Positions 10,282 to 44,238 of a stretch of DNA of 64,000 nucleotides are shown in pieces. Made by a program: the position numbers and the translations under genes. Origin of the DNA: Candidatus Cloacimonadales bacterium (GTDB lineage Bacteria > Cloacimonadota > Cloacimonadia > Cloacimonadales > JAFGVF01). Below the pieces are notes generated by a model, which worked only from the letters and a program-made list of their open reading frames with translations, was not told the origin of the DNA and searched no databases. The number at the start of each line of letters is the position of its first letter. The stretch's first letter is position 1. The stretch covers positions 576,001 through 640,000 of the forward strand of contig OY762964.1 in NCBI GenBank assembly GCA_963667035.1. Reading direction: 5' to 3'.

Positions 10282-10387
10282 GGTTAGAGTAACCTATGTG
10301 AATAGTAATAGAGAAGTATTACCCCTTATCCACAAGCGTCATACACTTTCCCTCCGAAAGTAATTCCGTACAGATTTAAATCTGTAT

Positions 10388-10544
10388 GATACGGCATGTC
10401 TCCTGACTTGAAGTTTACCTCCGAGCTCCCTTCCCATCAGTTTAATGACAGTGGTATGAACTCTTTGTTCCTTCTTACAGTAGCGGGGGCTGTTCTCGAT
10501 TTTCACGAGATTCCATCTTAGCTCTTCATTAGAGAACCAGTATC
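10388..10544 (-). ncRNA. Cobalamin (B12) riboswitch
   Basis: Minus strand: GAUAC-UGGUUC...AAGAUGGAA-UCUCG-UGAAAAU-CGAGA-ACAGCCCCCGCUACUGUAA...CCACUG...GGGAAGG...AAGUCAGGAGACAUGCC-GUAUC. All canonical blocks are present, including the B12 box, with P1 GAUAC/GUAUC. Confidence 0.93.
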
Positions 10545-10656
10545 TTGTTTAATGATTATTTGCTTCAAAATGAGTCAAGAAAATCTTACTGCTTTCTTCA
10601 ATGTTTGCTCCATTAGTACAGGTAAGTTCCCATATTTCATTAATATACATTTCTTT

Positions 10657-35059: not shown

Positions 35060-37177
35060 ATGAAAAAGATTGTTTTGTTCTTAATCAGTATCTATCTTAT
35101 TATACCTGTATTTTCTATCTATCATAAGATTGGAGAATATGAGCACCCAAGCAATTTCTCCTATCTAGCTGTTTCCAATGATAGAGGGTATCTGTCATGC
35201 GGTAATGATAGTCTTGTAGTATTAGATGTATCCATTCCTGAGAATCCTCAATTTCGATCAGTATATGATACCGGAATAATCATACATGAATTATGCTTGA
35301 TTGATACTTTATTGTTCATTGGATCGCATGGTTCCGGAGTTCAGATTCTTAATGTGTCTGATTCCCAGAACCCTGTATTACTCAGTGAATATGTAACATC
35401 CGCATATATACGATCAATTAATGTTGTCGGAAATATCGCTTATTTATGTACAATTATGAATGGTATTGAGATAGTCGATGTTTCAGATGTTTACAATCCA
35501 CAGCTAATTAGTAATTATAATAATCTTATTGATGCATATTCGATAAAAATAGTAGGGGATATTGCTTATGTTGCTAACGGTATTCATGGATTAACAGTAC
35601 TGGATATTTCAGAACCACAAGTTCCGCAACTTGTTAGAACTTATCAGACAGATCAATCCTTACACTATGTAGATGTTGAAGGTGATTTGATGTTTCTCGG
35701 TATGCTTTCTATCGGACTGGAAGTATTGAATATTACAGATATAAACAATATTCAACAATTGGATAGATATCAGATATCACAGATAATCTTTCTTGATGTT
35801 CAGGGAGGGTTATGTCATATTGGAGACAGGGAAAAGGGGTTGTTGGTAATTGATTATTCAACACCGGATAATCTAGAGTTAGGTGGTATTTATAACAGTG
35901 CAAGAGATAAGAAATCAATTTGTATCTATGATTATTGCGCATACTTGGTAGATGATAGATCTGACTTAGATATTATAGATATATCAGAACCGGATATTAA
36001 TATTCAGAGAAGCAGTTTCTCCGAGTCTGTATCGGTTAATATAGTTAAATCAATAAATAACGCCACATTCGTTGGAGATGATATCGGAATAAAAGTTTAT
36101 GATCTCGCTGATATCAATAATCCTATACTACTAAACTCAGTTGAAGTGCCTGAAGGTGTAAGAGACTTTTTTATTGATGGTAACATTATTTATTTGGCAT
36201 CACCTCGGAGTGTCTATACATTGAATATTTCTAATTTACAGAATTTGCAGTTAGGCGGTTTTTATCATAATGGTGGTTACGGTGAGATAATATCAATAAT
36301 CTATTCGGATAGTTTGATTTATTATTCTACGACTCATAACGGAATTCGAGTTCTTGATGCAACTAATCCACTATCATTGCAATCAATCTGCTCTCATTTC
36401 AACAATACCCTTATAAATGATATGCAGATTTCAGGAGATATAGTGAAAGCTGCATGCGGTTGGACAGGGTTAGTTACTTTCGATGTATCTAATCCACCTA
36501 TACCTAATCAGGTTTGTCAGTTAGATATTACCGATTATGCTAAGAAGATTGTTCAAAATTCTCAAGTAGTTTACATCGCAACAGGCAAGAACGGTTTAAA
36601 AGTCATTGATACTTCAAACATGTCAGATTGTTATTGTTGTGAAACTATATTGCCAAGAGAAACAAGTAGTATTGATGATTGTTTTATCTATAACAACTGC
36701 CTGATTATTTGTGATAGTAACTGGAATGAAATCAGTATATATGATATCAGTAATCCACTACAACCACGATTAGTTGATTCTTTTCAATGGAATTTACATG
36801 TAAATAATATAGATGTCGAGGATGATATACTGTTCTTAGCCAATGGTTCGAATGGTGTTAGTACTCTTGAATCGGTTTTTCTAACAAACAATCACGAGGA
36901 GATTCAAGAGATACAGAAGTTAATATCATTAAGTAATTTTCCCAATCCCTTCAATCCTGAAACAACAATATCATTTCAGTTAACCAAAAGTTCTTATGTA
37001 ACTCTAAAAGTATACAATATCAAAGGTGAGTTAATAGAAACACTGATTTCAGGAAATGTCCTCGCCGGTAGCCATAGCTATGAATGGAAACCTGAGAATG
37101 TAGCAAGTGGAGTATACTTCTGTAGATTATCTGATGGTAAGAAGACAGTCACTCAAAAGCTAATATTGTTAAAATAG
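35060..37177 (+). CDS. Secreted LVIVD-repeat beta-propeller protein with C-terminal FlgD-Ig/T9SS-A-like domain
   Basis: Repeats of the form G-L-x-I/V-D-V/I-S-x-P-x-N-P; C-terminal NFPNPFNP...ASGVYF...QKLILLK. Confidence 0.88.
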   Translation: MKKIVLFLISIYLIIPVFSIYHKIGEYEHPSNFSYLAVSNDRGYLSCGNDSLVVLDVSIPENPQFRSVYDTGIIIHELCLIDTLLFIGSHGSGVQILNVSDSQNPVLLSEYVTSAYIRSINVVGNIAYLCTIMNGIEIVDVSDVYNPQLISNYNNLIDAYSIKIVGDIAYVANGIHGLTVLDISEPQVPQLVRTYQTDQSLHYVDVEGDLMFLGMLSIGLEVLNITDINNIQQLDRYQISQIIFLDVQGGLCHIGDREKGLLVIDYSTPDNLELGGIYNSARDKKSICIYDYCAYLVDDRSDLDIIDISEPDINIQRSSFSESVSVNIVKSINNATFVGDDIGIKVYDLADINNPILLNSVEVPEGVRDFFIDGNIIYLASPRSVYTLNISNLQNLQLGGFYHNGGYGEIISIIYSDSLIYYSTTHNGIRVLDATNPLSLQSICSHFNNTLINDMQISGDIVKAACGWTGLVTFDVSNPPIPNQVCQLDITDYAKKIVQNSQVVYIATGKNGLKVIDTSNMSDCYCCETILPRETSSIDDCFIYNNCLIICDSNWNEISIYDISNPLQPRLVDSFQWNLHVNNIDVEDDILFLANGSNGVSTLESVFLTNNHEEIQEIQKLISLSNFPNPFNPETTISFQLTKSSYVTLKVYNIKGELIETLISGNVLAGSHSYEWKPENVASGVYFCRLSDGKKTVTQKLILLK

Positions 37178-37217
37178 TGCTAACGGGTTTAACATGATTG
37201 TCATCATTTTAGATCCT

Positions 37218-37340
37218 AACTGTTTTCTCACATTCCATACTCAACCAACGCACTGCGTTTGCACTGTGCAGCCACTATTGAGGCACTGTGCACGCACTGA
37301 AACACCGGGTTGGCAGTGCCTTCACAGTGGGATCACAGTG
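37218..37340 (+). repeat. Dispersed intergenic element, copy 1 (11-bp-phased CACTG x5 / CAGTG x3)
   Basis: CACT(G) at 37251, 37262, 37273, 37284 and 37295; CAGTG at 37314, 37325 and 37336. Homologous to the reverse complement of 47257-47379. Confidence 0.9.
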
Positions 37341-37577
37341 CGAAAAGTGTGCTTTAGTAATTCGTTTAAACAATGTGAAGTAATAATTAATAGTACGATT
37401 CATCTTTATAAACGAATCAATTACTTGCTTCAAAAGGATAGAATGATGATAATTCAGCTTTGTTTATTTTTATTGATAATTATGATAGCACTATGAATAC
37501 CGCATTTAATCGCTAATCAGAACTGTATAATTCAGATATTTAGAAAGGAAAAACAAAAGAGATATTGACAAGAATCA

Positions 37578-37603
37578 GTATACAAACATTCATGTTTGTA
37601 TAC
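37578..37603. promoter_or_regulatory. TetR/AcrR-type operator overlapping the tetR promoter
   Basis: Perfect palindrome GTATACAAACAT-tc-ATGTTTGTATAC just downstream of TTGACA (37565). Confidence 0.88.
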
Positions 37604-37615
37604 AAAGAGGAAGAT

Positions 37616-38257
37616 ATGAGAAGAACTAAAAGTGACGCAGAACAAACAAAGCATGACCTGGTTATGGCAGCACTTAAGCTATTCAGCGAAAATGGTTATT
37701 CAGCTACTAATTTAGCTGATATTGCCAAGCGTGCCGGAACAACCAGAGGTGCAATCTATTGGCACTTTGAAAACAAGGATCATTTATTCTCATATCTTAT
37801 TGAACAAGGCATGAACTATCTATGCAATTATATTGAATATTCATATCAACAGGAAGGCACCTTCCTAGACAGAACCAAAAGATTATTCGTAAGTTTTAGA
37901 GATTTGGATTCCTATGAACTTGCTTTGTTTAATTTCATTAAAGATAATTTCATTCAAGTAAGGAAAATACCATCCGTTCAGAGTATTTTTGAAACTTTTT
38001 ACCAAAGAGCGATTAAAGCATTGAACATCGTTGAAAAGGAAGTTTTAATAGCACAGAAGCATGGTGAGCTTGATGAGAATATTGATTCGGGAGCTTTGAG
38101 TGTTTATATTTTGAACTTTCTTGCATTGATAGGAATCAAGAGCAGTCCTGAGATTGATTTGCGCAATTTAGTGTTGGGAAGAGAAGTTAAGGATTTTTCA
38201 GAGGATTTAATAGATTTTGCATTTAAAGGACTAAATAGTATAAAGAAGAAATCGTAA
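37616..38257 (+). CDS. TetR/AcrR family transcriptional regulator
   Basis: MRRTK...TNLADIAKRAGTTRGAIYWHFENK (AcrR/TtgR-like HTH); ATG 37616 after GAGG. Confidence 0.95.
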   Translation: MRRTKSDAEQTKHDLVMAALKLFSENGYSATNLADIAKRAGTTRGAIYWHFENKDHLFSYLIEQGMNYLCNYIEYSYQQEGTFLDRTKRLFVSFRDLDSYELALFNFIKDNFIQVRKIPSVQSIFETFYQRAIKALNIVEKEVLIAQKHGELDENIDSGALSVYILNFLALIGIKSSPEIDLRNLVLGREVKDFSEDLIDFAFKGLNSIKKKS

Positions 38258-38292
38258 AAGAAATCAGACTTTTGCGACTATTTTTTTATCCC

Positions 38293-38316
38293 TATACAAA
38301 CATTCGTGTATGTATA
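38293..38316. promoter_or_regulatory. Second TetR operator upstream of the RND operon
   Basis: TATACAAACAT-tc-GTGTATGTATA, a near copy of the 37578 palindrome, overlapping TATAAT. Confidence 0.85.
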
Positions 38317-38346
38317 TAATGAGAATATTTGATAAATGGAGGAAAG

Positions 38347-41300
38347 ATGTTTCTATCGAAAATTGCGATAGATAGACCTGTGACGACCTGGGTATTTGTT
38401 ATTGTGCTTGTACTCATGGGATTACTAGCTTATCAATCAATTCCGCTAAGCTTAGCACCGGAAACTAATCTACCCGTGGTTTCTGTACAGATTGTTTATC
38501 CTGGTGCAGGTGCGGAAGAGATTCAAAACAATATTACGAAGAAAGTTGAAGATGAAGTTGCAACAATCAGTGATTTGGATTACTTCAATTCCTATGTTAT
38601 GGAAGGAGCTTCCGTAACTACTTTGATTTTTAAGACTTCTAAAGACGAGAATGTAGCTGTTAGAGAAGTTAAGGATAAAATTGAGCTAATTGCAAACGAT
38701 TTACCTGACGATGCTTATGAACCTGAGATTTCCAAGTTCGATATAGCATCTGAACCAATTATGACTTATTCTATGATAACTTCTTTATCTCCTGCTGATG
38801 CAAATGATTTTGCTGAGAACAATCTTGAACCAAGACTCTCAAGAATTACAGGTGTAGCGGAAATAGATCTCACCGGTGCTAATGAGAGAGAAATACAGGT
38901 AGTTCTAAATAGGAAACAGCTTAGTAAATACGGATTATCTCCATTGCAGCTAGTAAGCTTTCTGCAAATGAATAATATGAACCTTCCAGGCGGTAGTATC
39001 AGAAAAAACGGACATGAATACAGTGTAAAATATGAAGGTGAGTTTAAATCACTGAACGATATAGCTGATATTCAAGTTCCTACACCTAAAGGAAACAGAC
39101 ATTTAAGTGAACTTGCCGAAATCAGAGAGACAAGTAAGAAACCTCAGGACTTAAGTAGATTTCACGATTCACAGAGTTCATTGGAAGGTGAAAACCTTAC
39201 AGTTATCAATATGGGTGTCATCAAGCTTAACTCAGCTAATGTTGTGAAAGTGGCCGAACAGGTGAGAGCTGATATGGAACAGCTTAAAAAAGAGTTACCT
39301 GATAACATTGATATTATTCTGGCAGAGGATAGTTCAACTTTCGTTAAGAACTCCGTTAGAGATACACTCTCATCAATATACATGGGTATTATATTCACAG
39401 CCCTTGTGCTATTATTATTCTTACACGATTTGAGAAGTACATTCGTTGTTGCTATCTCAATGCCGGTAGTGTTAATAGCAACATTCATGCTCGTGAATGG
39501 AGCAGGATTCACTCTCAATATCATGTCATTAATGGCTATGAGTGTATCGGTGGGAACGCTAGTTACGAACTCGGTTGTGATTCTGGAGAATATTGACAGA
39601 TACATTAAGATGGGAATGAATAAAATTGAAGCTTCAAATAAAGGGACATCAGAGATTGCAGTTGCCGTTATAGCTTCAACAGTTACTAACATCGTTGTGT
39701 TTGTGCCAATTGCTACAATGCAATCAATGGTTGGATCTATCTTTAAAGAATTCGGGCTTACAGTTGTGTTTATAATGGTACTTTCAATCATAATCAGTTT
39801 TACTCTTACACCAATGCTTGCATCTCAAATCATTAAAGTGAAGGGTAAGAAATCTAAGAACAGTTTTGGAAAGAGATTTGAAGATGGATTTGAAAAACTT
39901 GCTGTGTCATACAAGAACTCGGTTAAATGGGTTGTTTCTTCACCTGCTAAGAGATTCTCGGTTATTATCTTCTCTATATTGATTCTTGTTCTTGTTGCAG
40001 TAACACTAGGAAAAGGGATAGGAACCGAATTCGTACCTTATGTTGATGATGGTGTTATTCAAGTTACTGCTGAATTCCCTGCTTATTATGATTTGGATAA
40101 AACATCCGATAAGTTCATGGAAATGGAAAAAATAATAACTTCTCATGATGAAGTAGATAAAGTTATCGTTAATATTGGTTCTCTTGACATGACTGAAGGT
40201 GTATATGTCGGAAAGATTCGTATCTTCTTGAAGAAGGATAGAGAACAAACCACAACAAGTATAGCTAGAATAATGACTCAAGAACTCTCTGCTATTCCTG
40301 ACGGATTGATTAAAGTTGCGGAAGTATCTCAATTTGAGACGCCTAGTAAACCTATTCAATTTGATATAATGGGAACTGATCTTGAAGAAGTTAGGAAGCT
40401 TACTCAGCAAGTATTTGAAATTGCAGGAAATGTAGAAGGAGCACTTAACGTGGATACTGATATTCGTGCAGGTAAGCCGGAATACAAGTTTGTTCCCGAT
40501 AGAAAGAAACTTGCTGATGCAGGTGTAAATGTTTATGACATTGCAATGACTCTTAGGACCACAATTGAGGGTGTTGAATCTTCAACTTACCGCATTAATG
40601 GTGAAGAGTATGATATCAGAGTATTGCTTGATAATCAGAATATAAATGATGAAGATAAGCTAAGAGATATTCCTATCCTTACATCCCTCGGAGAGAAACA
40701 TCTTTCTGATTTGGGAAAAGTGGAACTCACCGAAGCTCCTACAATGATTTATAGAAAGAATAAGCTTATCATGCATTCAGTAACCGCTAGTATTGGTAGT
40801 AGAACACTTGGTGATATCGTGGGAGATATACAAAAAGGTATAGATGAAAAGATTACTATACCAAGCGAGTTCAAGATTGAGCAAGGTGGCGACGCTAAGC
40901 TTCAAAACGAAGCTATGGTTGATTTATCTCGTGCTTTCTTGATTGCTCTTGTACTTACTTTCCTTCTTATTGTGGCAATCTTGGAATCATGGAGTCAAGG
41001 TGTTATTATCATGACAACTATCCCTCTTTCGTTGATAGGTGTTATAACAGGACTCTCCATGTTTGGCGTTGCCTTAAACATCTTTGCGATGATGGCGGTG
41101 GTTATGCTAATCGGTATTGTTGTGAATAACGCTATTATCATTCTGGACTACACTAACCATCTTCACAGAAGCGGACTTGATAAAGTATCTGCTATCCTTG
41201 AAGCATCACATACAAAGCTGAGAGCTATTGTTATGGCTACATTAGCATCAGTACTTGGTATGTTACCTCTTGCTCTGGGATTGGGTGCCGGTGCAGAGTT

Positions 41301-41424
41301 GCGTCAAGGTGTTGGTGTTGTATCAATGGGAGGTTTGTTAACTTCAGCGATACTCACATTGTATGTGATACCTGTAATATATGTTCAATTCACTAAAAAG
41401 AAAATAGTTAATACGGAGGTCTGA
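38347..41424 (+). CDS. RND efflux permease (AcrB/HAE family)
   Basis: IDRPV, YPGAGAEE, SVVILENI, LTPML, GIVVNNAII, LRAIVMAT. Confidence 0.95.
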   Translation: MFLSKIAIDRPVTTWVFVIVLVLMGLLAYQSIPLSLAPETNLPVVSVQIVYPGAGAEEIQNNITKKVEDEVATISDLDYFNSYVMEGASVTTLIFKTSKDENVAVREVKDKIELIANDLPDDAYEPEISKFDIASEPIMTYSMITSLSPADANDFAENNLEPRLSRITGVAEIDLTGANEREIQVVLNRKQLSKYGLSPLQLVSFLQMNNMNLPGGSIRKNGHEYSVKYEGEFKSLNDIADIQVPTPKGNRHLSELAEIRETSKKPQDLSRFHDSQSSLEGENLTVINMGVIKLNSANVVKVAEQVRADMEQLKKELPDNIDIILAEDSSTFVKNSVRDTLSSIYMGIIFTALVLLLFLHDLRSTFVVAISMPVVLIATFMLVNGAGFTLNIMSLMAMSVSVGTLVTNSVVILENIDRYIKMGMNKIEASNKGTSEIAVAVIASTVTNIVVFVPIATMQSMVGSIFKEFGLTVVFIMVLSIIISFTLTPMLASQIIKVKGKKSKNSFGKRFEDGFEKLAVSYKNSVKWVVSSPAKRFSVIIFSILILVLVAVTLGKGIGTEFVPYVDDGVIQVTAEFPAYYDLDKTSDKFMEMEKIITSHDEVDKVIVNIGSLDMTEGVYVGKIRIFLKKDREQTTTSIARIMTQELSAIPDGLIKVAEVSQFETPSKPIQFDIMGTDLEEVRKLTQQVFEIAGNVEGALNVDTDIRAGKPEYKFVPDRKKLADAGVNVYDIAMTLRTTIEGVESSTYRINGEEYDIRVLLDNQNINDEDKLRDIPILTSLGEKHLSDLGKVELTEAPTMIYRKNKLIMHSVTASIGSRTLGDIVGDIQKGIDEKITIPSEFKIEQGGDAKLQNEAMVDLSRAFLIALVLTFLLIVAILESWSQGVIIMTTIPLSLIGVITGLSMFGVALNIFAMMAVVMLIGIVVNNAIIILDYTNHLHRSGLDKVSAILEASHTKLRAIVMATLASVLGMLPLALGLGAGAELRQGVGVVSMGGLLTSAILTLYVIPVIYVQFTKKKIVNTEV

Positions 41425-41801
41425 TGTATACCCTACAAGAAACTCTAAATTTTCATGCTTCCCATCAGATTAAGATTAATGATGAACACGAAAGCATTAT
41501 GCATACACATCAGTGGTATGTTAGAATTACGGTTGGATTTACTGAACTTGATAAATACGGTATAAGTATGGAGTTTAACTACTTTCAGAATCAAGTTAGA
41601 GATATAATAAATCATTTCGATAACAGTCTCTTGAATGACCTTAAAGATTTTGAACATGAACAGCCTACTGTTGAGAACGTAGCTAGAATCATGTTTGAGA
41701 AGTTTGCTCATGATATAAACACAGATAACAAGAAGATTCATAAAGTGGAACTGTGGGTTAATCCAAGCAGAGTCATTTCATATAATGGTCAGGGGGCATA
41801 A
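41424..41801 (+). CDS. QueD/6-pyruvoyl-tetrahydropterin synthase-like T-fold protein with non-canonical active site
   Basis: F-x-A-S-H, H-T-H, GISMEF, LLND, PTVENVA; start and stop overlap both neighbours. Confidence 0.85.
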   Translation: MYTLQETLNFHASHQIKINDEHESIMHTHQWYVRITVGFTELDKYGISMEFNYFQNQVRDIINHFDNSLLNDLKDFEHEQPTVENVARIMFEKFAHDINTDNKKIHKVELWVNPSRVISYNGQGA

Positions 41802-43084
41802 TGTTTAGTAGAATTAAATTAATCGCTGTCATTATCTTAGTGTCCGTTAGTATGGGATTGTTTAGTGAAACTATCACCTTAGATGATGCAATCAATATTG
41901 CTTTAAAGCAAAGTGATGATATTCTAACGGCAAAAGAGGACTTAAAAAACTCAAAGTATCGATTCCGTGAAGCATTAGCAAATGCTTTCCCTAAGATTGA
42001 TGCAAGCTTAACAGCAGTTCATAAAGCTTATACATCCAATGATCTTTATGATCAACAGGAAGATAAAGCACTTGATGGTGAGATAAGCATTGTGCAGCCT
42101 CTTTGGGTTGGTGGAAAAGTCGGTACAGGCATTAAAATTGCCAAAGTTTATAGTAAGCTTTCAAAAGAATCTCTAGAAATGCAGAAAGCAAAAACTTGTG
42201 TGGCAATAACCCAAAGTTTCAATGATGTTCTATTAGCTAAAGAAGCTTATGAAGTTATCAAAGCAACAAAAACAGACGCTCTTGAAAATCTGAGAGTGGC
42301 TGAAACAATGTATGCTCAAGAATTGATTTCCGAGTATGAAGTGATTAAAGCACGAGTCGGAGTTAAATCTATTGAACCGATGCTCGTAGAATACAATAAT
42401 AATTACAGACTTGCTTTGAATAAGTTCAAGACAGACTTAGGTATGGAATTGGATGCAGATTTAGTTCTTGATGGTAAACTGGAGTATAATCCTGTTCTTC
42501 CTGATACAACTAATTATCTTCAAAGAGTACTTGATAACAGAAGAGAACTATCAATCCTAAAGAAATCAAACAAGATGTATAGACAGAGCAAGAGAATCGC
42601 CTACGGTGATTTGTTACCTACTATAGCCGCTGTGGGCTCCTTCACTTCTCAGGCAAGTCAGGATGAATTCTCTGATATGTTCAAAGATGACTTCAATATA
42701 CGCAAGTTCAATGTTGGTATCAATATTAGCATTCCTTTATTCCATGGAGACACTTATGCTAAGATTCAACAAGCTAAAAGTAGTATTAGAAAGTCTGATA
42801 TTGAGTTAAGAAAGGCAAAGAGATTACTTCAACTTGAAGCCGAGTCAACATACCGTAACCTGTTACAAGCATCAGAGCAAATCAGCTTACAGGAAGATGT
42901 TGTAAATGAGAGTCAAAAAGCTTTGGATATTGCAAATGTCAGATTTAGTAATGGCATAGGCTCACAAATAGAAGTTATTGATGCTCAAACGAATTTGCGT
43001 AACAGCCGTCTACAATTGCTTTCAGCAATTCATAATTTCACTAATTCAGTCATAGAATTCAAGTATGCAAGCGGATTATTATAA
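41801..43084 (+). CDS. TolC family outer-membrane factor
   Basis: Signal peptide; ITLDDAINIAL, FPKIDAS, QPLWVGG, ISIPLF, EVIDAQ. Confidence 0.92.
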   Translation: MFSRIKLIAVIILVSVSMGLFSETITLDDAINIALKQSDDILTAKEDLKNSKYRFREALANAFPKIDASLTAVHKAYTSNDLYDQQEDKALDGEISIVQPLWVGGKVGTGIKIAKVYSKLSKESLEMQKAKTCVAITQSFNDVLLAKEAYEVIKATKTDALENLRVAETMYAQELISEYEVIKARVGVKSIEPMLVEYNNNYRLALNKFKTDLGMELDADLVLDGKLEYNPVLPDTTNYLQRVLDNRRELSILKKSNKMYRQSKRIAYGDLLPTIAAVGSFTSQASQDEFSDMFKDDFNIRKFNVGINISIPLFHGDTYAKIQQAKSSIRKSDIELRKAKRLLQLEAESTYRNLLQASEQISLQEDVVNESQKALDIANVRFSNGIGSQIEVIDAQTNLRNSRLQLLSAIHNFTNSVIEFKYASGLL

Positions 43085-43094
43085 GGAGAACATC

Positions 43095-44144
43095 ATGAAA
43101 AGAATATATATTATAGCGATAGCATTAATGCTCGTATTATTAGTTGGCTGTTCATCTGAAGAGGTACAGCAACCTAAATCAATTGCAGATATTCAGGAAG
43201 CAGAAGGTATTCCTGTTAAGATAGATAAAGTTAAAACAAGTAAACTGGAAAGATGGGAAGAGTTCCAGTCAACACTTGAAGGAGCCAAAGAGTCTGAAGT
43301 GTTTGGACTTCTTAGTGATAATCTATTCCGTATTAACGTTAGTCTTGGAGACTATGTTGAAGCAGGTGAAGTAATTGCCGAGTACTCAACTGAATCTCCA
43401 ACAGCAAAGTATACACAAGCTTTTTTAGCTAAAGATATAGCAGAGAAAACTTACAATAGAATGCTTACAGTATACAATGCCGGTGGTATATCAAGACAAG
43501 ATCTTGATAATGTTAAGACACAATACGATGTCGCTATTCAGGATTTTAGAGCAGTATCTAAGATGGTAAAAGTACAAGCTCCTATTTCGGGTATAGTTTC
43601 TGAAATAAATTATGATGAAGGTGATTTTTGTTCTCCTTCATCTCCATTAGCTAAAATAGTTGATTCATCAGTACTCAAAGCAACTATAACAGTAGATGAA
43701 ACAAAGATAAACAACTTCAAAAAGAATCTACCTGCTGTTATCAGTTGGGATGCCATTGGTGGCAAAACTTTTAAAGGTAAAGTAACAGCTATCTCATTAT
43801 CAGCTAATCCTCAAAAGCGTGGCTTTGCAGTGGATGTAATGATTAATAATCATAATAACGAGCTAAAAGCAGGTGCTTTTGTAACAGTTAAAGTAAACAC
43901 AAAGACAAATGCGGAAGCTATAATTATTAACAGACTCTCAGTAGTTACCGAAAACAATAAGGATTACGTTTACGTAGTAAAAAATGACAAAGCTGTAAAA
44001 CAAAAAGTAGTTACCGGGGACGTTGTTTCTGATAAAATAGAGATAATCTCAGGACTAACACTTAACGACTCATACGTTGTTGAAGGTCAGAGCAGAGTCA
44101 AAGACGGAATTAAAGTAAATATTGTGAAAACAAATCAATCATAA
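43095..44144 (+). CDS. RND periplasmic adaptor (MFP) lipoprotein
   Basis: LLVGC lipobox; VQAPISGIV; IISGL...VVEGQ; ATG after AAGGAG. Confidence 0.92.
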   Translation: MKRIYIIAIALMLVLLVGCSSEEVQQPKSIADIQEAEGIPVKIDKVKTSKLERWEEFQSTLEGAKESEVFGLLSDNLFRINVSLGDYVEAGEVIAEYSTESPTAKYTQAFLAKDIAEKTYNRMLTVYNAGGISRQDLDNVKTQYDVAIQDFRAVSKMVKVQAPISGIVSEINYDEGDFCSPSSPLAKIVDSSVLKATITVDETKINNFKKNLPAVISWDAIGGKTFKGKVTAISLSANPQKRGFAVDVMINNHNNELKAGAFVTVKVNTKTNAEAIIINRLSVVTENNKDYVYVVKNDKAVKQKVVTGDVVSDKIEIISGLTLNDSYVVEGQSRVKDGIKVNIVKTNQS

Positions 44145-44204: not shown

Positions 44205-44238
44205 AGAGAGTGCGTAGCCCTTACGCACTCTCTTTTTT
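44205..44238 (+). terminator. Rho-independent terminator of the efflux operon
   Basis: agagagtgcgta-gccct-tacgcactctct followed by ttttt. Confidence 0.88.

Follow-up and report, generated by a model that had tools for sequence, protein, structure and literature searches.

Proteins of the 6-pyruvoyl tetrahydropterin synthase (PTPS) superfamily are told apart by short motifs, with CxxxHGH marking PTPS-I or QueD, CxxxxxHGH marking PTPS-II, ExxHGH marking PTPS-III and FGPAQ marking PTPS-IV, and with PTPS-V standing as a class of unknown function, according to the sections on this family in two earlier papers (PMC5041015, PMC5445326). In the part that concerns us, the first of these also presents COG0720/PTPS as a textbook case of mis-annotated paralogues, since small changes in the active site alter the reaction (PMC5041015). 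For Escherichia coli QueD, the relevant section of another report states that the two His of the motif and one more N-terminal His bind zinc, and that Cys27 and His71 take part in catalytic triads (PMC9894224). Here we analyze a gene of this superfamily in a 64,000-nt stretch of DNA from a Candidatus Cloacimonadales bacterium (genome 576001-640000; hereafter the window, whose own numbering is used below unless genome positions are named). As a first-pass annotation of the window had proposed, the gene encodes a 125-aa QueD/PTPS-like protein, which we call X, and lies between the genes for a resistance-nodulation-division (RND) permease and a TolC-like outer membrane factor (OMF); the gene for a membrane fusion protein (MFP), the periplasmic adaptor of the pump, follows. 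The linkage to RND genes is not unique to this genome and recurs in four genomes from two phyla. By its aligned residues, X is without the residue sets of the described PTPS chemistries (PTPS-I, -II and -III were compared), and it retains the residues of the zinc site and of the ring anchor.

That X belongs to the superfamily is clear from its match to Pfam PF01242 (PTPS), which covers profile positions 4-120 of 121 with 88.1 bits (E 5.5e-25; gathering cut-off 22.4). Three narrower NCBIfam models leave it below their cut-offs, namely TIGR03367 for QueD (59.6 vs 89.25 bits), TIGR03112 for the 6-pyruvoyl tetrahydropterin synthase-related domain (60.7 vs 69.35 bits) and TIGR00039, the PTPS/QueD subfamily model (44.6 vs 125.5 bits). 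An AlphaFold2 model built with 143 aligned relatives as input has a mean predicted local distance difference test score of 96.5 and a predicted template modeling score of 0.88, and Foldseek aligns it to PH0634, E. coli QueD and human PTPS with template modeling (TM) scores of 0.82-0.89. The first strand of the modeled fold is made up of residues 2-14, so a leader peptide is absent and X is predicted to be cytoplasmic.

The residue counts that follow refer to the same 143 relatives, with columns numbered as residues of X. As was read earlier, X retains H14, H27 and H29 together with P81-T82-x-E84. Three of these columns are invariant among the relatives (H27, H29 and E84, 143 each) and H14 is found in 142, and column 82 holds Thr in 98 and Ser in the other 45. 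Thus the residues of the three-His zinc site and the ring-anchoring Glu of the superfamily are present in X, with zinc occupancy itself being a prediction. The columns at which X departs from most relatives are these:

Column 23 (the QueD Cys): Glu in X; Cys in 100 of 143
Column 24 (the PTPS-III Glu): Ser in X; Glu in 77 of 143
Column 28: Thr in X; Gly in 124 of 143
Column 67 (the triad His; E. coli His71): Asn in X; His in 109 of 143
Column 112 (the C-terminal Glu): Val in X; Glu in 133 of 143

The motif of X is accordingly ESIMHTH, with E23 in the QueD Cys column and Thr instead of Gly; F65-D66-N67 takes the place of LDH, and V112-N113 that of E-S/T (column 113 is S in 54 relatives and T in 50). 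The proposed loss of the catalytic set is therefore seen in all three segments, with one correction: the C-terminal pair had been given as ET, and the genome's own QueD has ES. Neither the PTPS-I motif CxxxHGH nor the PTPS-III motif ExxHGH fits, as had been stated, with Glu at column 23 and Ser24 at the Glu column; the PTPS-II motif CxxxxxHGH does not match either, there being no Cys anywhere N-terminal to H27. Classes PTPS-IV to PTPS-VI were reportedly defined by Phillips in 2012. Loss of the Cys and the triad His alone is not proof of inactivity, because 29 of the 143 relatives lack both Cys and His67 yet keep Glu24 and Glu112, a PTPS-III-like pattern. The joint absence of Cys23, His67 and Glu112 is much rarer, being found in five of the 143, which are the four pump-linked proteins and one that still has Glu24. 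All four RND-linked proteins lack C23, E24, H67 and E112: their Cys column holds Glu or Gly, the triad His is replaced by Asn, Lys or Arg, Glu112 is replaced by Val or His, and HGH has become HTH in three of them. The term "catalytically degenerate", used in the first-pass annotation, thus holds for the known PTPS chemistries, whose residues are gone, and goes too far as a general statement, as Glu23 beside the predicted zinc could support a new one.

Recurrence of the locus was established at two evolutionary distances. Among 41 related genomes, a second PTPS match, 40-42% identical to X, occurs in two (G012 and G024) that belong to another family of the same order, Cloacimonadales. In both, the order TetR-RND-X-OMF-MFP recurs, as confirmed with Pfam, and the TAATG overlap between X and OMF described below is found in G012 as well. 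A profile made from these three proteins scores 235-247 bits in exactly three of 232 Cloacimonadota genomes, the next best score being 99 bits, and the other PTPS rows examined (44 of 44, some places being counted under two locus ids) have CxxxHGH and Asp-His. A search of 1.84 billion representative proteins gave only two clusters that reached E 1e-30, followed by a match of 102.6 bits. The fourth case came from a scan with four nearby Cys-less representatives, which found a contig of the phylum CSSED10-310 (L069). On this contig, whose end truncates the RND gene, the gene for a 131-aa PTPS-like protein (P0008) begins 10 nt 3' of RND and overlaps the adaptor start. Its RND is 54% identical to that of the window and its MFP 38%, and RNDs of other Cloacimonadota reach at most 43%. 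P0008 is 27% identical to X and has Gly at column 23, Ser at 24, Asn-Arg at 66-67 and His at 112. In every X locus, both the start and the stop of the X gene overlap or nearly abut the neighboring genes.

Other searches added little. A word-indexed homologue search with X returned the query alone, a locus scan of genome contigs with the single X protein gave no match, the ESM Atlas gave generic PTPS clusters only, and of two metagenome scans the first found nothing and the second a single locus without pump linkage (L070). No paper on a PTPS-like gene within an RND operon turned up in a full-text literature search. Outside these four proteins, the closest relative is P0005, which is encoded on five Logan contigs, the longest of 17,780 nt; P0012 and P0021 are encoded on contigs of 609 and 697 nt. 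P0005 is intermediate in its residues: it retains HGH and Asp-His, but its Cys column holds Glu and its column 112 holds Gly. As a side observation, a sulfatase-family gene (L070, 1-618) ends 22 nt 5' of the Cys-less PTPS gene on the same strand, and phosphodiesterase-family and sulfatase-family genes lie convergent to the pump in L069 (4596-7105), all by Pfam; these two cases of alkaline-phosphatase-superfamily neighbors may be due to chance.

X is a maintained protein. Between G012 and G024, its gene differs at 33 nucleotides and its product at seven amino acids, and the ratio of nonsynonymous to synonymous substitution rates (dN/dS) is 0.052 for X, compared with 0.066 for RND, 0.105 for OMF and 0.058 for MFP. 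X is thus under purifying selection like the pump genes and is no decaying remnant.

According to the list of open reading frames (ORFs), five forward-strand genes between 37.5 and 44.3 kb encode TetR, RND, X, OMF and MFP. Together with the associated signals, they are laid out as follows:

37565..38257, + strand: TetR-family regulator, AcrR/MtrR-like (PF00440, 66.7 bits; the top NCBIfam models, MtrR and AcrR, both score below cut-off)
37578..37603, strand not applicable: operator-like palindrome, an 11-pair inverted repeat 5' of tetR, containing TATACAAACATTC
38252..38277, + strand: terminator-like hairpin 3' of tetR (consensus match alone)
38293..38320, + strand: promoter-like site TATACA-16-TATAAT, 10/12, overlapping the second operator-like 13-mer
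38329..41424, + strand: RND permease of the AcrB/MdtB superfamily (PF00873, ACR_tran, 779 bits)
41424..41801, + strand: X, the 125-aa PTPS/QueD-fold protein without known catalytic residues (Pfam match, residues, AlphaFold2 model)
41801..43084, + strand: TolC-like OMF (PF02321, OEP, 192.7 bits), its start overlapping the X stop
43065..44144, + strand: MFP periplasmic adaptor with a lipoprotein-like N-terminus (TIGR01730, 169.3 bits vs a cut-off of 94.9)
44205..44233, + strand: terminator-like hairpin, 13 pairs followed by a T-run, closing the operon

With these PF00873, PF02321 and TIGR01730 scores, a tripartite RND set is encoded together around X; the adaptor also matches PF16576 (HlyD_D23) with 74 bits, and the closest solved relative of the RND is MdtB (E 6.6e-113). 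X is coupled to both neighbors as described in the first-pass annotation, the RND stop and the X start overlapping as TGATG (41422-41426) and the X stop and the OMF start as TAATG (41799-41803). The RND-X-OMF-MFP genes would form a single TetR-controlled transcript. The 13-mer TATACAAACATTC has exact copies at 37579 and 38293 only in the 64-kb window, the former within the palindrome 5' of tetR and the latter within the promoter-like site 5' of the RND gene, and the palindrome may serve as the TetR operator. The start of tetR is probably the ATG at 37617, and that of the RND gene probably the ATG at 38347, which is preceded by GGAGGA.

A few other features of the surroundings may be recorded. 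An Rfam scan of the window found no riboswitch or other family near the operon; the lone match in the window is a cobalamin riboswitch at 10376-10557 (- strand, 107.6 bits). Immediately 5' of the tetR region lies a gene (35060-37177, + strand) for an LVIVD-repeat beta-propeller protein of 705 aa that ends in a C-terminal sorting domain for type IX secretion. Two candidate ORFs were set aside, one of 100 aa at 37194-37496 that has no family match and looks spurious, and one of 98 aa antisense to X (41445-41741), which was dropped because the + frame holds the Pfam match.

The source genome (G000), a single contig of 3.10 Mb that is 98% complete, has its own set of standard genes. The canonical queD whose presence elsewhere had been left for checking is found at genome 2,840,265; its product has CKNMHGH, LDH and EIWES, scores 136.4 bits and is 31% identical to X. 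QueC is encoded at genome 286,961, a QueE-like protein at 1,250,793 and FolE2 at 1,169,998, and FolB (2,470,869; 113.8 bits) adjoins FolK (2,471,228); a type-I FolE was not found in this genome. None of the queC, queE-like, folE2, folB and folK genes lies within the window, in agreement with the earlier statement on queC, queE, folE and folK. Because standard QueD, QueC, FolE2, FolB and FolK are present elsewhere, X has no gap to close in the queuosine or folate pathways and is a supernumerary T-fold paralogue. G012 and G024 likewise each have a standard QueD besides X.

The pump itself belongs to an uncommon group. RNDs at least 57% identical to that of the window occur in four of the 232 genomes of the phylum, namely G000, G001, G012 and G024. 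In G001, TetR is 61% identical to its counterpart in the window, RND 78%, OMF 67% and MFP 62%, a syntenic downstream methyltransferase is 62% identical, and 13 nt with AGGAGG lie between the RND stop and the OMF start. A scan with the alignment of four permeases gave 41 loci, which were then compared by local tblastn. The gene order, previously remarked on as atypical, is indeed a minority form: besides the window, RND comes first in nine of the 41 related loci (G001, G012, G024, the CSSED10-310 contig, four Delongbacteria and one of Bacteroidia). X is present in three of these nine, or in four of ten operons when the window is counted, and the operons with X all have RND identities of 54% or more. 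The remaining 32 of the 41 loci, which have the usual order with the adaptor before RND or are fragments, gave no PTPS-like match. Within the CSSED10-310 phylum, this permease type occurs in one of 14 genomes. Thus, X is a marker of one sub-clade within an unusual family of RND-first pumps, and it is missing from at least one pump of that sub-clade.

The permeases also stand apart in their predicted energy coupling. Transmembrane helix 4 of the window RND (39560-39580) reads LVTNS, with Thr-Asn aligned to the LVDDA of solved AcrB-type pumps, and transmembrane helix 10 (about 41110-41125) reads VVNNA, with Asn at the Lys site. This protein therefore lacks the proton-relay residues of AcrB-type (HAE-1) pumps, an Asp-Asp pair in helix 4 and a Lys in helix 10, which in AcrB are D407, D408 and K940. 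In the 37 of the 41 related loci (L072-L112) where the motif could be read, the helix 4 pair is TN, NN, AN, SN or DN, and DD in none, so that, judged from these residues, the whole RND family must couple to ions otherwise than by an Asp-Asp relay. As a separate observation, a paralogous RND match with one in-frame TAG and 38-39% identity is found in the source genome (G000:C1:2146004-2149039, - strand) and in G001 (G001:C1:50007-53042, - strand).

Where X came from is suggested by its phylogeny. With FastTree (145 rows), X, its two orthologues, P0008, P0005, P0012, P0021 and the L070 protein form one clade (SH-like support 96). IQ-TREE (52 rows) groups the same eight members of this Cys-less clade (SH-like approximate likelihood ratio test, SH-aLRT, 94) and places them next to standard QueDs from those Delongbacteria and Bacteroidia genomes whose RND-first operons are without X (SH-aLRT 95) and apart from 13 Cloacimonadota QueDs (SH-aLRT 95); P0005 is 48-56% identical to Delongbacteria-type QueDs. 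In approximately unbiased (AU) tests, a tree holding the four pump-linked proteins together was not rejected (log-likelihood 1.57 better, p 0.563), which is compatible with one common origin. A tree joining the three Cloacimonadales X proteins to host-type QueDs was not rejected either (log-likelihood 12.09 worse, p 0.22). With 0.34-0.37, the operon does not differ from its flanks in GC content and hence shows no sign of recent transfer. In the scenario that we favor, a Delongbacteria-type queD would have entered the pump operon once, after which the module would have spread laterally and X would have been lost in G001.

What might such a protein do? That X keeps its place in an efflux operon across two phyla and is under strong purifying selection suggests a function connected with transport or with its regulation. 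We tentatively suggest, as the most probable of several readings, that X serves one clade of RND-OMF-MFP pumps as an optional accessory in the cytoplasm, where it would bind zinc and a pterin- or purine-like ring and be tied to the cargo or the inducer of the pump. On this reading, X would descend from the QueD (PTPS-I) lineage and would have given up the family chemistry while retaining the fold, the three-His zinc site and the ring-anchoring Thr/Glu pair. Produced together with the pump from the single TetR-controlled transcript, it would bind a heterocyclic small molecule related to the cargo or inducer, and it may sequester or present that molecule instead of turning over 7,8-dihydroneopterin triphosphate (H2NTP). 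The zinc occupancy, the class of ligand, binding rather than catalysis and the functional tie to efflux are all predictions from sequence, and it is the retained Thr/Glu anchor, and nothing else, that would point to pterins, 7-deazapurines or antifolates.

This idea is speculative, and several observations weigh against it. RND pumps are commonly viewed as picking up their substrates in the periplasm or at the outer leaflet, which leaves a cytoplasmic partner without an obvious place. Glu23 is not conserved, being Gly in P0008 of CSSED10-310, so that the four proteins may not share one mechanism. The operon of G001, from the same genus as the source genome, stands in the same position without X, and five RND-OMF-MFP operons of Delongbacteria and Bacteroidia (RND identity 45-47%) are also without it; X is therefore dispensable for the pump. 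Moreover, X is known from only four genomes, two of them in one genus, and the related Cys-less protein of L070 is encoded beside a sulfatase gene with no pump.

It is possible, if somewhat doubtful, that X is instead an active enzyme with a new chemistry, in which the three-His zinc and Glu23 (His112 in the CSSED10-310 form) as general base would alter or detoxify a compound for removal by the co-expressed pump, in a "modify and export" resistance module. In three of the four proteins, Glu23 aligns exactly with the catalytic Cys of QueD, and the PDB titles of 3lze and 3m0n name a Glu as the catalytic residue of the Plasmodium vivax PTPS. The 29 relatives with a PTPS-III-like pattern indicate that loss of Cys and His67 does not equal inactivity, and the low dN/dS of 0.05 would fit an enzyme. 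However, the Glu112 of most relatives is gone in all four, no single acid/base residue is common to them given the Gly of P0008, and a candidate substrate is lacking.

The absence of X from the pump operons of G001 and of the five Delongbacteria and Bacteroidia loci could also mean that X is a passenger whose function is unrelated to efflux, for instance a stress-induced spare T-fold protein that was inserted once and later inherited or transferred with the pump. Its narrow spread (three of 232 genomes of its phylum, one of 14 in the CSSED10-310 phylum) and the lack of pump linkage in L070, a relative within the clade, would be in line with this. We nevertheless consider a passenger unlikely, as X has stayed directly 3' of RND despite divergence of the pump proteins to 38-57% identity and of X itself to 27-41%, the ends of X overlap or nearly abut the neighbors at all loci, and purifying selection on X is as strong as on the pump genes.

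Since G001 keeps a 61%-identical TetR without X, and since the retained zinc ligands and ring anchor argue that a small-molecule site still matters, a role through protein contact alone seems very unlikely to us. Such a role would make X an anti-repressor of TetR or a modulator of the cytoplasmic face of the RND trimer; anti-repressors of efflux regulators do exist, such as ArmR acting on MexR, and X is predicted to be co-expressed from a TetR-controlled promoter. That X has an ordinary second QueD activity or a PTPS-III activity replacing FolB is highly improbable: X belongs to PF01242, and COG0720 paralogues with differing pathway roles are described as common in the part of PMC5041015 on this family, but X matches none of CxxxHGH, CxxxxxHGH and ExxHGH, lacks Glu112, falls under the cut-off of the QueD model, has no que or fol gene nearby and resides in a genome with its own QueD, FolB and FolK.

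Our favored reading, an optional ligand-binding accessory, can be carried further. X might be the first soluble cytoplasmic subunit dedicated to an RND pump, a QueD-derived pseudoenzyme that would capture or prime a pterin- or 7-deazapurine-like metabolite and so link a cytoplasmic pool to export or induction; we regard this version as quite unlikely. To our knowledge, no soluble cytoplasmic accessory of an RND pump has been described. If X were such a subunit, it would found a new class of efflux accessories and might provide a route by which pterins or deazapurines are exported. More generally, should X prove to bind or convert a pterin- or purine-like compound, this would offer a clue to the cargo of an unstudied pump clade in anaerobic digesters and sediments, and X may be a pump-associated component of a new kind. 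With four genomes in all, the rarity of X limits its significance. For annotation, it is of note that the X subfamily matches none of the PTPS-I, -II and -III motif classes and would be annotated as QueD, as the CSSED10-310 member already is.

Compared with known systems, X is related to QueD/PTPS-I by the common T-fold (TM 0.85/0.89 to E. coli QueD, PDB 4ntk/4ntm), by the three zinc His and the Thr/Glu anchor, and by its nesting among CxxxHGH sequences, next to the Delongbacteria-type QueDs (SH-aLRT 95). It differs in lacking the Cys, the triad His and Glu112, in falling below the TIGR03367 cut-off, and in standing in an efflux operon rather than beside queC, queE, folE or queF. With PTPS-III (PH0634, PDB 2dj6, and the Plasmodium enzymes), it shares the absence of the Cys and, in many cases, of the triad His, and PH0634 is its best match in both sequence and fold among solved structures; however, X has Ser at the Glu of that class and lacks Glu112, and PTPS-III is found where folB is missing, whereas the genome of X has FolB adjoining FolK. 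A more distant comparison, by fold and profile alone, is SCO6650 of Streptomyces coelicolor (PDB 3d7j; TM 0.78/0.73, profile E 3.9e-4), a PTPS-fold homologue to which, by the entry title, its depositors assigned no function, and on which a full-text literature search found no paper. In the passages of PMC7809023 that mention it, COG0720 appears solely as an annotation example. On the side of the pump, the window RND scores 374.3 bits with the CusA/CzcA model, compared with 677.7 for multidrug-type models. The slot of X nevertheless has an analogue in cusCFBA, where CusF, a small soluble metal-binding protein, is encoded among the genes of an RND tripartite pump; unlike X, CusF is periplasmic, carries a leader peptide, has another fold and belongs to a heavy-metal RND pump.

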